Positions 18,432 through 24,086 of a stretch of 25,783 nucleotides of DNA are shown here, one piece after another. Position 1 is the first letter of the stretch, and the number at the start of each line of letters is the position of its first letter. The position numbers and the translations under genes were made by a program. Origin of the DNA: Candidatus Heimdallarchaeota archaeon (GTDB taxonomy: Archaea > Asgardarchaeota > Heimdallarchaeia > Heimdallarchaeales > Heimdallarchaeaceae); NCBI GenBank assembly GCA_021399395.1, contig JAAFKJ010000130.1, positions 1 through 25,783 on the forward strand, in the 5' to 3' direction. The notes under the pieces were generated by a model, which saw nothing but the letters and a program-made list of their open reading frames with translations, was not told the DNA's origin and did no database searches.

Positions 18432-18534
18432 TTTATCACTAAACAAGTAGTAAATCTTTTTGGAATATAACTTTTACTACTGCAAGATAGTTTCATAAGT
18501 GCGTATTAGTCTATCTTGTGTAGTGTATAAAGAG

Positions 18535-19887
18535 ATGAAGAGAAGAAAAATAAGCCAATTTGTGCTACAACTAATGATTATTTCTTCGATATTACTATCA
18601 AATTCAAGTTCTGAAGTAGTACTATCAGATTTATCTCAGGATAATAATTCAGATAATCTACATGATGATCAGAAAACCTGCTATCTGTATAATATAAGCG
18701 GTTGTTATGCAGTACAAGCACCTGAATCAGATCTCGGACCCTTCAAACTCTATGCTCATATTCCAATTGCATATGGAAGACAGGCACTAATTGGTCTTAA
18801 ACTCTGGGAATATCCAACCGGTAGAGTACTAGATTATAAGATCAACCAGGATTATCCTGGACCAAACATCCTCCTCGAGATTCAATTTGGTTATCTTAAC
18901 GAAATGGAAATAGTCTATGTTTATTGGAGTATGTTGATGATTGTAGAGAAGAATGATTACTCACATCTACCAGAGGTTATTGATCAAACCCCTATAGAGG
19001 AATTACCAACTGAAACAACAATTTGGTTGGAGAGTACAGAGTTTGCTCAAGCATCTCATCCTGAAATACAAGCAAAAGCAGAGGAACTAGCAGGAAATGA
19101 AACAAATGCTTATGCGATTGCTAAGAATATAGGAAATTTTACCGGACTTGGAATAGATTATCAGTACACGTATGAACCCCAAGATGCCCTTACGACTTTA
19201 CAAAATGGTTTTGGTGTTTGTACAGGTAAATCCAACCTTGCAGTTGCGCTTCTCCGAGCTCTAGATATTCCTGCAAGGATGTTACTTACAAGCCCTCTCC
19301 CCCATTTCTTTATTGAATTGTATTTACACCCTTATGGATGGATAAGGTGTGAAGCAACACCTGGAACAGTACCATTTGATTATCATTGGCTTACAGTTGG
19401 ATATTGTGTTTATCCTTCAGATGAAACATCATCTAGTGTCATTAACGGCATTCATCCCTACGAGGGACAAGTAACTTATTGGGGAACAGATAATCCATCA
19501 ATTCTGTGGGACTACATTGGAGTACATTGTAAGAGAGAAACATACACCCTTGTTATGAATTCGGATCAACTCGAGCAAGCATACAATCTATCAAACCTTG
19601 TTTGGGAGAATTTTGTTTTAAACTTCAATTCGAATCTAACCAACCAAGAACAGTTAAGGTACGAATCTGCAATCAATTATCAAATCGTAGCAACAAATGG
19701 GTACATAAACCAAAATATAACCAAGTTTCTTAACAATATGGAACTCTCTCTTGAAACGTATCTTAGTGATATTGTACCATTATCTACAGCTGAATCTAGC
19801 ATTTATAGTGTGCTAATCTTTTGTTCACTGATTCTGATTGGAACTGTTGATTGTGTGAAAAAAAGGAGAGTTAAGCAAGATCTTTAG
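18535..19887 (+). CDS. Secreted transglutaminase-like domain protein with C-terminal membrane anchor
   Basis: DALTTL..GFGVCTGKS...VALLRALDIPAR, HFFIELY and GWIRCEAT (Cys-His-Glu triad); signal peptide; TM plus basic tail. Confidence 0.85.
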   Translation: MKRRKISQFVLQLMIISSILLSNSSSEVVLSDLSQDNNSDNLHDDQKTCYLYNISGCYAVQAPESDLGPFKLYAHIPIAYGRQALIGLKLWEYPTGRVLDYKINQDYPGPNILLEIQFGYLNEMEIVYVYWSMLMIVEKNDYSHLPEVIDQTPIEELPTETTIWLESTEFAQASHPEIQAKAEELAGNETNAYAIAKNIGNFTGLGIDYQYTYEPQDALTTLQNGFGVCTGKSNLAVALLRALDIPARMLLTSPLPHFFIELYLHPYGWIRCEATPGTVPFDYHWLTVGYCVYPSDETSSSVINGIHPYEGQVTYWGTDNPSILWDYIGVHCKRETYTLVMNSDQLEQAYNLSNLVWENFVLNFNSNLTNQEQLRYESAINYQIVATNGYINQNITKFLNNMELSLETYLSDIVPLSTAESSIYSVLIFCSLILIGTVDCVKKRRVKQDL

Positions 19888-20019: not shown

Positions 20020-20997
20020 GTGCCAATCAATTGGAAAAAAACACTATCTATTTCATGGTTAGTAAGTAAGATAATACTAGCAATTTTCTTCCTAATTGAA
20101 TGGCTTGCTACACTTGTTGATATACTGTCAGTAATGTCAACTGCAGTGGAACCTGAACCTATTCTCAGAGGTTTAGGAAGGATCTATCCTTTTACTTCGT
20201 ATACTGATACAATACTTCGATTCTTTTTAGGAGATACAATTCATCATTATTTATTCAAACATTGGATAATGGCAGGCTTTTTTTTCTTCATGTTATTTTT
20301 AACTTTAGCAATAAATCATGGTCGTAAACGAAGAAAGTTAAAGAAATTGCCTTGGTCATGGTGGGGAATTGTTTCTATTTTAATTGTAGAAGTTATTATT
20401 TTGTTTATCTGTTTCTTCTATGCAGATCCAGTTCCATATGTTCAAGATCCTTCTTGGTTTATTGATATTTATCACAAGAATCAGTTTTCTGCAACTTTAA
20501 CTATCTCATGTCTGTTTCTGATTATTTATTCTAGTATCAAAGAAGGTAAGAAATTAAATGAAAGAGCATATGAATTTTGTACTACTCCACTTCTTTATAG
20601 CATTATTTTTGGAATCATGACTCTTGAGATAATAGCAGGTTTTCCTTGGTTTTCAGGAGGATATCGCGATATATTTCTTTATGGACAATCATGGTTTTCT
20701 TTCGATAAATATTTACATTTCCTGATGAGTGTTGCAATTGTTTTGATTTTCTGGAGCTTAACAAGGAATAAATGGATATCAGGCGGTATTGTTATTAGTT
20801 CTCATTTACTCTGGGAATTGTTTGAATATGGATTACAACCTGGGGAAATTGTTGATACTCTAAAAGATGAGATTATAAATATCTCAGCAGTAATTTTTGC
20901 TATACTAATTATCATATTTCTTGAAAGAAGGAAGAAACGGAATCAAGAAAAATCAGAACAAACTTCAGATAATGTTAGTGAAGAAAAAAAGAAATAA
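20020..20997 (+). CDS. Polytopic membrane protein with VanZ/DUF2238-like C-terminal motif
   Basis: About 8 TMs; FDKYLHF...LWELFEY...DTLKD pattern. Confidence 0.6.
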   Translation: MPINWKKTLSISWLVSKIILAIFFLIEWLATLVDILSVMSTAVEPEPILRGLGRIYPFTSYTDTILRFFLGDTIHHYLFKHWIMAGFFFFMLFLTLAINHGRKRRKLKKLPWSWWGIVSILIVEVIILFICFFYADPVPYVQDPSWFIDIYHKNQFSATLTISCLFLIIYSSIKEGKKLNERAYEFCTTPLLYSIIFGIMTLEIIAGFPWFSGGYRDIFLYGQSWFSFDKYLHFLMSVAIVLIFWSLTRNKWISGGIVISSHLLWELFEYGLQPGEIVDTLKDEIINISAVIFAILIIIFLERRKKRNQEKSEQTSDNVSEEKKK

Positions 20998-21048
20998 AAA
21001 AAAGAGGAAACATCTAAAAAAATAGAAAATGAGTAAAAGAAAAAACAT

Positions 21049-22185
21049 CTAGATACAGCGATATACTGCTGTAGATCCTATTTCTTTATACTCCTTTTTT
21101 GTTACCCATAGTTTATTGAAAGTCTTTAGAGAACTGAGAATACTTCCACCTATCCATACGGAATATCTTCTTTCTGGTGGTGAGATTATCTTCACTTCTG
21201 TGGTCTCTGGAACCAACTCAACAAGTTCTTTGTGTACTCTTTCCTTTAATCCAGGAAACATTGTAGATCCACCAGATAAAACAATGTTAGAGAAGAGGTC
21301 TCGGCGTAAATCTACGTCACAGTTCTGTATCATCCTATAGATTAGCTCATCCAAAGGTTCTTCTTCAGAGCCAATCACTCCAGGACTGAAGAGTAATTCT
21401 GGTGCCATAAATCGTTCTGAACCGATAGTTATTACTTCTCCGTCAGGCATGACATAGTCTTTCTCCATTCCAGAAACTTTCTCTGATAATCTTAGTTCCT
21501 TCTCTGGATCTAGAGCAACATAACAGAGTCTTTCTTTGATGTCCCGCACAATCTCTCGTTCAGCACTCGTTGTTAAGGAGTAACCCCTTTGTTTCAATAG
21601 AGTCCTCAGATAGTTGGTTATATCTCTTCCACCTATATCGCTTCTATGTATGGCATGGGATATAGCAAATCCTTCATAGACAGGTACGATGTGTATCACT
21701 CCATCTCCTGCATCTATAACAAGTCCCGTGGTCCTTCCAGATGCATATAGAGAAAGTATTGCCTGCATTGAGACATACATCGCGGGAACATTGAACGTCT
21801 CAAACATCAACTCAGCCATCTTCTCTTTGTTTCTATTATCATTAAGAGGCGGTTCAGTTAACATTATCGGATGTTCGTTTGGATTAACCCGCATGTCATT
21901 AAAGAATGTGTAGTGCCAGATTCTTTCCATTGCTTGCCAGTCTCTAACTTGTCCATGTTCCATTGGATAGACTAGTTTGAGAACACCACGCATGTTCATA
22001 GCTTCTTCACCAATGTAGTATTCCCTAATCCAACCTTCAACATCAGGCATAACAACTGGGTTCTTTGGATAACCCATGATTGTTGGAAAAACACTACGTG
22101 GTTGGTCTTCACCAGCGAAACCGTTTTTAGTGAAGCCGGTACCGTTATCAATGACCAGAGGATTGGTATGGAGTTCGTCCGACAA
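21049..22185 (-). CDS. Asgard actin (Lokiactin-type, eukaryote-like)
   Basis: DNGTGFTKNGFAGEDQPRSVFP, YPMEHG, LTEPPLN, LYASGRTTG, DAGDG, AEREIVRDIKE, LSGGSTMFPG and PERRYSVWIGGSIL; SD AAGGAGGT before the TTG start. Confidence 0.97.
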   Translation of the reverse strand: MSDELHTNPLVIDNGTGFTKNGFAGEDQPRSVFPTIMGYPKNPVVMPDVEGWIREYYIGEEAMNMRGVLKLVYPMEHGQVRDWQAMERIWHYTFFNDMRVNPNEHPIMLTEPPLNDNRNKEKMAELMFETFNVPAMYVSMQAILSLYASGRTTGLVIDAGDGVIHIVPVYEGFAISHAIHRSDIGGRDITNYLRTLLKQRGYSLTTSAEREIVRDIKERLCYVALDPEKELRLSEKVSGMEKDYVMPDGEVITIGSERFMAPELLFSPGVIGSEEEPLDELIYRMIQNCDVDLRRDLFSNIVLSGGSTMFPGLKERVHKELVELVPETTEVKIISPPERRYSVWIGGSILSSLKTFNKLWVTKKEYKEIGSTAVYRCI

Positions 22186-22211
22186 ACTAGATACCTCCTT
22201 TGGTCATCATA

Positions 22212-23120
22212 TCATTTTTTCTGAACAGTTTTACTTTCATTCGCGTTTTTGTTGGTTTTCTTTTCATTTTTCTCACTTTTTTCAACTTTTTTCGTTTTGT
22301 TTACAAATTCCTTAACATGTCGAAGTTTCTCATCGGTCATTGTTTTCTCAAGTTCTTCAAGACGCTTTTCTAAACGTTCAAAATCTCTTTCTTGAGCCGT
22401 CTCTCTTTCTCGTCTTGATAGCTCTGCTTCAACAGTATAGAGAAGAATCAATTCTTGAAATACTTCGAATAATTGATCTGTTCTAAAAATGTCTTTGAGA
22501 TACTTCCAATGTTTAGGAGAATCTATGTTCTTTTTCTCCATTGTTGATGGTTTTACATGAAGGTCTTCTTCAGTGATTTTTTTCCCAGTTTTTTTCATAT
22601 TCTGAATATATTCATCAGGTTTCATTTTTGTTTTAGGTGTTGAAGTATCAGCTGTTTTAGCTAATTTTTCCTTTAAAATCACTTCGTAAGGTTTGTTTTC
22701 AATACTTGATTTTCTGGAATCAAACTCTCGATCTACTGAAGGCATAAGTGCACTTTCAAGGGCTGAAAGTAATGGATTATGATAACTTCCATGATATCGA
22801 CTCTGTAAAAAATCTTGAATACGCTTTAATTCATGAAGGTCTAGGTCCACTAATTCAGATGGTGAATATTTCCTTGAACGATCCTTGATATGCTCATGTA
22901 TTTCCGAAATCTCTCCTGGAACTTGTTGATCTGTATATGTAGATTTAACTATTTTTCTTTCCATATTATCCATCCTACTTTGTAGTTCTGTAACTCGTTT
23001 AGCACGTGTTTCTAGTTTGCCTTGTTCTTCCTTCTTACGCTCACGATAGGCCTTTTTTCGTTCTGCGTTTGTATCATATTTTCTTGGTCTTCCACGTGCT
23101 TTCTTTTCTTCGTCATTCAT
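22212..23120 (-). CDS. Basic coiled-coil protein with N-terminal AT-hook-like motif, unknown function
   Basis: RGRPRKY.TNAERKKAYRERKK and two coiled-coil stretches; SD AAGGTGA 5 nt before the ATG at 23120; ends 26 bp before actin. Confidence 0.75.
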   Translation of the reverse strand: MNDEEKKARGRPRKYDTNAERKKAYRERKKEEQGKLETRAKRVTELQSRMDNMERKIVKSTYTDQQVPGEISEIHEHIKDRSRKYSPSELVDLDLHELKRIQDFLQSRYHGSYHNPLLSALESALMPSVDREFDSRKSSIENKPYEVILKEKLAKTADTSTPKTKMKPDEYIQNMKKTGKKITEEDLHVKPSTMEKKNIDSPKHWKYLKDIFRTDQLFEVFQELILLYTVEAELSRRERETAQERDFERLEKRLEELEKTMTDEKLRHVKEFVNKTKKVEKSEKNEKKTNKNANESKTVQKK

Positions 23121-23135
23121 TTGGTTCACCTTTTC

Positions 23136-23195
23136 GTCTCGGGACAATAAACAATTTACCCAATCATTTAAAAAGATTTTTGTCTCGGGACAAAA
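23136..23195. promoter_or_regulatory. Two copies of GTCTCGGGACAA (near-palindromic) flanking a TATA-like box
   Basis: Identical 12-mers at 23136-23147 and 23182-23193; the second extends to TTTTGTC-TCGG-GACAAAA; minus-strand TTTTTAAAT at 23166-23174. Confidence 0.65.
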
Positions 23196-23237
23196 TTAAG
23201 AGAAAAGGTTATAGTGGCATGAGAAGCAGGTTTGTCA

Positions 23238-24086
23238 ATGTATATTCCTATTGAAGGATTAAAACCATCTAAAGAGATTCTGGAATCATTTGGTCTGAAG
23301 GATGAGATAAAACTATTACCAGGAGGGCTAAGAAGAACATTTCTAGTCGGCGATGTTGTGCTGAAATATTATCATGATACAACTGAAGAGGAAGTTAAAT
23401 GGTTAGCAGATTTACTAAACGGCATTAATCTCGGCAATATACGTTTCCAGCAATTTATCAAATCTAAAGATGGCAGATATGTTGTTGAAGGATGGAGTGC
23501 ATACAGATATCTTGTAGGAGAATTTTACAATGACATTAAGCATCTCAGACTGAAAAAGGAAGTTCTTCAATCATTTCATGAAGCAATAAAAAATAAGCCA
23601 CGCCCGTCTCACGTAACAGCTGAAGGGACAGATCCCTGGAATATTGCGGATAAAATGGTTTGGGGAGAAATACCCATTCAATGTCATGAACAAATAATGA
23701 AAAAAATTAGCAAATTAATGGGGTATATTAAACCCTTAAACCTTCCTTCTCAATTGATTCAGGGTGATCCTCATCACATCCTCTTTTCAGACCATGAATC
23801 GCCAGCTCTAATTGATTTATCTTGGCATTATAGACCTGCAGATTTCGCTTTAGCAGTATTAGCTGCAGATGCACTCTGTTGTTGGTGCAAAGATGAATGT
23901 ACCTGTTCTGATGCAAATGAAGTTTACCAAGTTTTCGAAGATATAGAGTTTTTTGATCAACTGCTACTAAGAGCAGTCTTGAGAAGAGCACTCGAATTTG
24001 AAGGATTAAGAAAACACGATGAAAAGTATCTCGAATCAATTGAAGGCGTTATACCTGCTATTGATTTTGTATATGGGATTTTTTAA
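23238..24086 (+). CDS. Aminoglycoside phosphotransferase-like kinase-fold protein (TIGR02569-like)
   Basis: LLPGG, VVLK, VVEGWSA, DPWNIADKMVWGE, QLIQGD and ALIDLS. Confidence 0.7.
   Translation: MYIPIEGLKPSKEILESFGLKDEIKLLPGGLRRTFLVGDVVLKYYHDTTEEEVKWLADLLNGINLGNIRFQQFIKSKDGRYVVEGWSAYRYLVGEFYNDIKHLRLKKEVLQSFHEAIKNKPRPSHVTAEGTDPWNIADKMVWGEIPIQCHEQIMKKISKLMGYIKPLNLPSQLIQGDPHHILFSDHESPALIDLSWHYRPADFALAVLAADALCCWCKDECTCSDANEVYQVFEDIEFFDQLLLRAVLRRALEFEGLRKHDEKYLESIEGVIPAIDFVYGIF

Follow-up and report, generated by a model that had tools for sequence, protein, structure and literature searches.

The window analysed here, the whole 25,783-nt stretch of the forward strand of contig JAAFKJ010000130.1 from Candidatus Heimdallarchaeota archaeon (GCA_021399395.1), carries on its minus strand a compact locus (21049-23195; all positions are those of the window) in which the gene for a basic leucine zipper (bZIP)-like protein, P0001, is followed by that for an accessory actin, P0002. 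The bZIP-like protein probably regulates its own promoter through two private palindromes, on a transcript that would also carry this spare actin, and the locus as a whole looks like one of gene regulation rather than a plasmid-style DNA-segregation machine. The first-pass annotation had described twin sites around a TATA box, a 302-residue basic protein, a 26-bp gap with a Shine-Dalgarno sequence and then an actin, and each of these elements is indeed present in that arrangement on the minus strand. The host assembly comprises 2,816,164 bases and is 82% complete; all genomes compared are draft metagenome-assembled genomes, those cited being 64-95% complete, so that absences are provisional, and related genomes are kin rather than independent samples.

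The putative distal operator, TTTTGTCCCGAGACAAAA (23178..23195, core 23182-23191), ends 3 nt upstream of the TATA box, in the place expected for the transcription factor B recognition element (BRE), and is found upstream of orthologues too, in either orientation. The TATA box itself, TTTTTAAAT (23166..23174), lies between both sites and has a T/A-rich counterpart at the equivalent place in relatives; its promoter function is predicted. The putative proximal operator, TTGTCCCGAGACGAAAA (23131..23147, core 23136-23145), follows ca. 19-38 nt downstream of the TATA box and is kept in all 17 genus loci shown; judged by the usual archaeal TATA-to-start distance, it would cover the expected transcription start. 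A ribosome-binding site, GGTGA (23126..23130), precedes the ATG of the bZIP-like gene by 5 nt, and relatives have GTGAT or GGTGA at that point. An exact 12-nt sequence, TTGTCCCGAGAC, is present at 23182-23193 and again at 23136-23147, the distal copy sitting within a longer palindrome (TTTTGTC-CCGA-GACAAAA), and a repeat search recovers the two sites as a 17-nt direct repeat of 94% identity, 46 nt from start to start. The earlier description of a twin palindrome therefore holds as to the two matching sites and needs qualifying as to symmetry, which is imperfect in the host genome (GTCCCGAGAC, with arms GTC/GAC and a central CG). Elsewhere in the genus the variants are GTCCCGAGAC, GTCTCGGGAC and the perfect palindromes GTCTCGAGAC and GTCCCGGGAC, in both orientations; occurrence in either orientation, with symmetry that is sometimes perfect, is the appearance expected of a site for a dimer. 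The putative consensus is TTGTCYC|GRGACAA, with palindromes of 10-14 bp.

Chance does not account for these sites, whose privacy is pronounced. The 10-nt core GTCYCGRGAC occurs twice in the entire host assembly, both times at this promoter. Across 25 genomes of the genus it occurs 37 times, 30 of them at the promoter of the orthologous gene, where the cores are mostly paired at a distance of 44-47 nt; the reversed control pattern occurs 28 times in the same genomes. The seven cores away from the promoter are single sites, and the one inspected (in genome G039) falls within an open reading frame. Looser 14-mers are not enriched over the reversed control in the host genome (with two mismatches allowed, 9 against 8; with three, 56 against 75), and further regulon members, sought there through such degenerate sites, were rejected for want of any excess. 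The design itself is constant: the same succession of distal site, TATA box, proximal site, GTGA-type ribosome-binding site and ATG recurs in 16/16 genus loci with at least 100 nt of upstream sequence, with or without an actin behind the gene, while a 17th locus, cut by a contig end, displays the proximal site only. Both among the genus loci and in the wider family, the proximal site is better conserved than the distal one.

The sites also change together with the protein. In five loci of another Heimdall family the TATA box is followed by TTGTCCCGAG(A/T)C; in a sister genus, the TATA box of the orthologues, whose basic helix reads RQK or KQK rather than RKK, is flanked on either side by GTAACGTTAC-type palindromes; and a subfamily of 206-207 residues, with ARQRAYYER in the basic helix, has palindromes of the TGTAATATTACA type. 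A paralogue in the sister genus (genome G012) retains RKR and likewise retains TTGTCTCGGGACAA at its promoter. Site sequence thus co-varies with the basic helix across subfamilies. The neighbours differ among the family loci, and the sole gene that always accompanies the site is the one for the protein itself, which makes it the gene that travels with the site; together, this co-occurrence and the co-variation of site and basic helix make self-regulation the best reading. The 206-207-residue member is carried by some genomes of the host genus as well (L071 1023-1646, L073 1078-1698), where palindromes of its own (TGTA-N4-TACA) accompany it and the next gene encodes a protein of ca. 600 residues that by eye resembles a helical-repeat protein; it was not found in the host assembly.

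The proposed mechanism is simple. A dimer of the bZIP-like protein would bind both palindromes, one abutting the BRE/TATA box of its own promoter and the other lying over the expected transcription start, and binding would shut off its own transcript. That transcript would also carry the second actin, whose weak TTG start is preceded by a strong Shine-Dalgarno sequence, with the consequence that the supply of spare actin would be set by a private switch, separately from the main actin. An operator over the transcription start normally blocks polymerase, and putative sites that overlap the BRE/TATA box or the start of a regulator's own gene have the geometry of a repressor. Autoregulators of the Lrp, TrmB, MDR1 and Phr types, which act in archaea by promoter occlusion, offer a close parallel in layout, with palindromes that bracket the regulator's own TATA box and a small, private, co-transcribed regulon; they differ in using helix-turn-helix or winged-helix domains, where the predicted reader here is a basic helix with a zipper. 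The sequence elements with their conservation and privacy, the co-variation of site and basic helix, the gene packing and the history of the actin are observed; binding by the protein itself, repression over activation and a single transcript for both genes we infer.

An activator or a dual regulator, with the protein recruiting TBP/TFB from the distal site and positive autoregulation giving switch-like expression of the spare actin, is an unlikely alternative, given that the better conserved of the two sites is the proximal one, in the blocking position over the expected start. What speaks for it is the distal site, which lies just upstream of the BRE/TATA box, and the precedent of the archaeal zipper-like protein GvpE, an activator of gas-vesicle genes that is reported to work through a sequence lying 5' of the BRE (PMC2241852).

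The protein that is expected to read these sites, P0001 (302 residues; 22212..23120, with its ATG at 23120), is a basic helical protein containing RGRPRKY...AERKKAYRERKK and belongs to a tiny, Heimdall-restricted family. When 1.84 billion representative proteins were searched exhaustively with HMMER, 30 relatives emerged at E≤0.001 and only 4 at E≤1e-30. Family matches are present in 36 of 400 genomes of the phylum, and full-length orthologues are confined to the host genus (17 other genomes, plus one copy cut by a contig end) and one sister genus (2/2 genomes). Most members have 180-200 residues. According to the alignment, all have in common an N-terminal GRPRKY-x(3,4)-A-x-R-K-K-A-Y-R-E-R-K-K followed immediately by heptads, a helical middle, and a long helix bearing the C-terminal motif LLY-x-E-x-EL-x-R; G10, R11, R21, A24, Y25 and R28 are invariant in the 23 aligned members, and P12 is present in at least 90%. 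In P0001, residues 9-15 form the GRP arm and 18-30 the basic helix, L36, V43, M50 and I57 make up the heptad zipper, and a helical middle with a clade-specific insert (ca. 125-205) precedes the long C-terminal helix (212-301). The insert, of ca. 80 residues, is restricted to the clade that sits, now or formerly, before an actin; a WH2-like reading of LKEKLAKT within it, prompted by a resemblance, had no Pfam support and was dropped. The AlphaFold model (mean pLDDT 75) predicts a single helix over residues 18-63 and a second over 212-301, which is the form in which the long coiled coils of the first-pass annotation are seen: as predicted long helices. A Foldseek comparison of the model with the PDB gave no match at E≤0.001 and generic long-helix matches only, and the best ESM Atlas score, 0.79, is below the level at which that score is informative.

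The likeness to bZIP proteins, in which a basic region with a near-invariant Asn runs continuously, at fixed spacing, into a heptad leucine zipper, is one of layout. The spacing in P0001, N18-x7-R26-x9-L36-x6-V43-x6-M50-x6-I57, conforms to this rule and falls on one helix in the model. The best PDB match of the family profile is a bZIP domain (7aw7_D, E 0.0085), with AYRERKK aligned on AFRERR, and the next is Pap1 (1gd2, E 0.81). At E≤1, 13 of the 23 members match bZIP_1 and 9 match bZIP_2; at E≤0.05, 9 of 13 scanned members match one or the other, all in the same register (for bZIP_1, protein residues 21-23 on profile positions 17-18). Shared with eukaryotic bZIP proteins of the Pap1/Yap1/HapX type (Pfam PF00170, PF07716; PDB 7aw7, 1gd2) are thus a basic helix that passes unbroken into a heptad zipper, the spacing N-x7-R-x9-L-x6-hydrophobic, and an A-[YF]-R-E-R-[KR] that aligns with the AFRER of 7aw7, whereas the GRP arm before the helix and the extra conserved middle and C-terminal helices set the Heimdall family apart from them. 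The putative targets are comparable as well, since CRE/PAR-type bZIP sites are likewise palindromic and 10 bp long, with two 5-bp half-sites that abut and CG at the centre. Within the archaea, AmzR and GvpE, the latter of which we take to be bZIP-like, resemble the present candidate in promoter binding by paired basic helices rather than by a helix-turn-helix. AmzR (MA2561) is described as a disulfide-linked dimer with PAS and GAF sensor domains that controls a methylamine regulon (10.1101/2025.05.05.652248). Neither protein is among the sequence-search matches of the family.

Several points, some concerning the protein and some the promoter, weigh against this account. No family member passes the Pfam bZIP cut-offs, the best scores being 22.1 versus 27.6 bits for bZIP_1 and 17.6 versus 22.3 bits for bZIP_2, and P0001 itself has no bZIP match at E≤1. 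The hallmark Asn position, occupied by N in 11 of the 23 members, is D in 7 and another residue in 5. The GRP...AYRER motif also occurs alone, without the zipper, in bacterial and phage proteins, and the bZIP likeness may therefore be convergent. At the promoter, the distal site is placed upstream of the BRE, a position that activators use too, and an internal actin promoter could be hidden in the AT-rich 3' end of the first gene. Furthermore, in at least seven genomes the gene and its sites persist, no actin follows, and the rest of the genome is free of exact sites; control of nothing but itself is odd for such a protein, and hints at a further role or at unseen targets. On balance, the protein would seem to work like a bZIP rather than to belong to bZIP, with convergence at least as likely as common descent.

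The bacterial and phage matches cover the first 30-100 residues only. Its bacterial carriers are of quite another build: the motif is fused to helicase-like, GIY-YIG and Dam methylase proteins and, in many bacteria, occurs in proteins of 80 residues (L095-L122). It also matches five PHROG families, all of unknown function, and turns up on 8 viral contigs (L123-L130), none of which holds a full-length relative. GRPRKY...AERKRAYRER is, in this respect, a small uncurated module shared by bacterial and viral proteins. The RGRP element had earlier been called an AT-hook core, a designation that P0001 does not sustain, scoring 15.0 bits against a cut-off of 17.4 (Pfam PF02178); this cut-off is passed by a single family member, P0010, with 19.0 bits, and by a single bacterial protein with 18.7 bits.

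The second gene of the locus encodes the accessory actin paralogue 'actin2', P0002 (378 residues, TTG start; 21049..22185), which matches Pfam PF00022 over profile positions 3-407 of 410 with 439.8 bits (cut-off 27; E 1e-131). Matches elsewhere are weaker (MreB_Mbl, E 0.0032; NCBIfam MamK and crenactin, far below their cut-offs), and P0002 is accordingly, like Lokiactin, a full eukaryote-type actin. It is one of two high-scoring actins in the host assembly. The other, the main actin on contig C48, adjoins prefoldin-like and V-ATPase-like genes (named by eye) and is of a type found, near-invariant, in 31/31 genomes of the family. P0002 is 83-84% identical to this main, housekeeping actin and is not its orthologue, belonging instead to a separate clade of ten promoter-linked actins. 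A second actin, 86-97% identical to P0002, is present in 10 of 25 genus genomes, and the ten form one clade (support 84/96) on a branch longer than those of the main actins.

The divergence of the spare actins is not evenly spread. At 19 columns they share no residue with five main actins, and of these columns 5 fall at positions 42-51, which we take from the actin structure to be the D-loop, and 4 at the N-terminus. The D-loop makes contacts along the actin filament. Variable columns number 105 in the spare actins versus 50 in the main actins, and P0002 keeps the conserved nucleotide-binding and filament residues. The median ratio of nonsynonymous to synonymous substitution rates is ca. 0.05 for the spare actins (28 pairs among eight sequences of equal length, two of the ten being left out) and ca. 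0.02 for seven main actins, both rough figures, as synonymous sites are near saturation. By these ratios the spare actin is under purifying selection and, wherever retained, a working gene. Relative to the Lokiactin system, it is a genus-level extra copy with an altered D-loop and N-terminus, and its partner gene encodes a putative transcription factor rather than a filament regulator. Asgard actin is reported to have filament regulators such as profilin and gelsolin as partners (PMC9834061, PMC9433394). Two other actin genes are noted in passing: a third actin in genome G040, which shares 66% identity with P0002 and opens a short contig, its upstream region being unassembled (G040:C391:29-1141), and a distant third actin-family gene of the host genome, with a 491-residue frame, 29% identity to P0002 and a Pfam Actin score of 196.8 bits (G000:C149:11294-12529).

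The junction between the two genes comprises 26 nt (22186..22211), with a Shine-Dalgarno sequence, AAGGAGGT, at 22193-22200, 7 nt before the actin TTG, and without an oligo-T run. In the ten loci that have both genes, the distances from stop to start are -11, -11, 26, 26, 26, 35, 35, 36, 61 and 79 nt; the GACCAAAGGAGG junction with its TTG start is found in eight, and in the other two the genes overlap by 11 nt. No T5 run interrupts any junction, and T7-T9 runs follow within 40 nt of the actin stop in 10/10 loci. Archaeal transcription terminates at oligo-T, and the T6, T7 and T8 runs directly after the actin stop of the host (20996..21045) are the likely terminator of the two-gene unit. An Rfam scan of 20800-23400 gave no match at E≤1, and an RNA element in the leader or the junction is thus not supported. 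All told, the bZIP-like gene and the actin look like a bicistronic unit. The linkage that was to be looked for across Asgard genomes is present in part: in the host genus all ten spare actins lie directly behind the gene, but 15 of 25 genomes have no spare actin, and at least seven of these keep the gene. The earlier idea of a dedicated actin regulator in an autoregulated operon is the best-supported reading, fitting the conserved private sites, the co-variation and the gene packing; the one observation at odds with a pure self-repressor is the persistence of gene and sites in those same genomes.

The history of the pair has been one of repeated loss. Seven genus genomes are clearly without an actin at the locus, and two further ones, which are not judgeable at the locus, have no second actin anywhere in their assemblies; a search for actin remnants in the genus genomes without a spare actin returned nothing at E≤10 beyond noise-level matches. 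In the regulator tree, genomes with and without the actin are interleaved, requiring at least four changes, and one pair of near-identical sister genomes differs in its presence. Both sister-genus genomes have, behind the orthologue, the same ribosome-binding site and the first 23 actin codons followed, out of frame, by the last 31 (L022 2401-2534, L023 1320-1452). This remnant is an actin pseudogene with an internal deletion, and its position behind the orthologue places the origin of the gene pair before the two genera diverged. In all, the spare actin was lost several times, at least four.

A second pair of this kind exists in the sister genus, where a paralogue of 245-246 residues overlaps the start of a divergent actin of 401-403 residues, 37-38% identical to P0002 (L064 3524-5396, G011:C35; L065 252-2151, G012:C173). 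In the family tree, a single clade with support 95 unites the paralogue with the orthologues and leaves out the 180-200-residue members. The simplest history would be a single origin of the regulator-actin pair and then duplication of the pair, with differing fates, which counts the two pairs as one association event rather than two independent ones; their long retention may still be taken as mild evidence for a functional tie. The protein itself evolves quickly: P0001 is 64% identical between the host and G040 (L081 4001-4909), though the flanking genes are 84-97% and the spare actins 97% identical. This mismatch suggests fast evolution, or allele exchange, of the bZIP-like gene; host and G040 are sisters in the actin tree and not in the regulator tree.

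These features bear on a second alternative, in which the operator-bound protein would also bind actin monomers or filaments, through the insert or the C-terminal helix, so that the actin pool sets transcription by a logic analogous to that of MRTF/SRF in animals. The retention of two diverged pairs of family member and actin, the confinement of the insert to the actin-associated clade, and the need of a regulon consisting of the protein alone for some signal input all favor such feedback. It is nonetheless improbable: P0001 has no WH2, RPEL, gelsolin or profilin match at E≤1, the protein has diverged where the spare actins have hardly done so, and the gene persists without the spare actin. 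More broadly, an actin-linked clade that gained an insert, and that retains one private DNA site in each genome, those without the spare actin included, leaves room for the protein to be more than a self-repressor, either as an adaptor tying one chromosomal site to actin filaments or as a reader of the actin pool that feeds back on transcription. It is the genomes that keep a self-only factor without a spare actin that leave a slender chance of the protein also touching or sensing actin.

A quite different factor might bind the sites, with the upstream protein being a coiled-coil, possibly cytoskeletal, protein that does not bind DNA and merely shares the promoter of the actin. Much of P0001 is indeed long helix with weak matches to coiled-coil families, and binding of the sites by it is a prediction. 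This is very improbable, as the site accompanies the gene across genera and families with differing neighbours and co-varies in sequence with the basic helix, the N-terminal residues are invariant and basic, and a general factor would find no further copy of the site in the genome.

Least probable of all is the ParMRC-like scheme of the first-pass annotation, in which the sites would be centromere-like, the protein a coiled-coil adaptor, and filaments of the spare actin, or of the main actin where the spare is lost, would move or position the chromosome. As in ParMRC of plasmid R1, a promoter flanked by repeated sites, a DNA-binding protein and an ATPase of the actin fold come together in one unit, autoregulated in R1; the site, as expected of a centromere, is confined to one place in the genome; protein and sites are kept where the spare actin is lost; and the divergent pair of the sister genus and the insert confined to the actin-linked clade point the same way. 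However, the ATPase is a eukaryote-type actin close to the main actin rather than of ParM/Alp type, and there are two palindromes only, in operator geometry at the BRE/TATA box and the expected start, where the R1 centromere has two blocks of five direct repeats. The promoter design is shared by family members without a nearby actin, the protein is not a ribbon-helix-helix protein, the gene order is the reverse of that in R1, the locus is chromosomal with a conserved backbone and no mobile replicon, and the ATPase is dispensable, lost at least four times and a pseudogene in the sister genus. The comparison therefore fails on ATPase type, repeat arrays, mobile replicon and joint inheritance, and the idea of an adaptor between DNA and actin is unsupported rather than excluded.

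The chromosomal setting of the unit is a conserved backbone, reading MBL-fold gene, (284-residue gene), bZIP-like gene, (actin), (transglutaminase-like gene) and DUF389 gene, with the bracketed members not always present. Rather than a mobile cassette, the spare actin represents a chromosomal presence/absence polymorphism; an origin from a mobile element was considered and ruled out by this backbone and by viral contigs that hold the N-terminal motif only. No cytoskeletal neighbours were seen beside family members in other Heimdall families (5 loci). The divergent 284-residue gene (23232-24086, plus strand) scores 70.5 bits against the NCBIfam hypothetical equivalog TIGR02569, whose cut-off is 136.75; its probable start is an ATG near 23238, ca. 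45 nt from the distal operator, such that the distal site could touch its promoter too, and it lies beside the operator in some genomes and not in all. A transglutaminase-core protein of 462 residues (18499-19887, plus strand) is encoded between the actin and the DUF389 gene, and in three other genomes has the opposite orientation relative to the actin. The open reading frame of 325 codons that converges on the actin (20020-20997, plus strand) has no family match, and no counterpart was seen among 16 related loci.

Research on Asgard actin treats it as the root of the cytoskeleton of eukaryotes, and no published report of the diversification of a spare actin, of its switch or of the regulator family was found in a literature covered mostly at the level of titles and abstracts. 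The value of the finding is limited by the confinement of the unit to two genera, by the frequent loss of the spare actin and by evidence that is sequence-based throughout. Within those bounds, the locus documents the diversification of actin isoforms within a Heimdall genus, with an altered D-loop in the spare copy. If the proposed self-regulation is true, it would place a cytoskeleton gene under a dedicated and simple transcriptional switch, operated by a member of an uncurated archaeal regulator family that would read DNA by a basic helix and a zipper, as eukaryotic bZIP proteins do.

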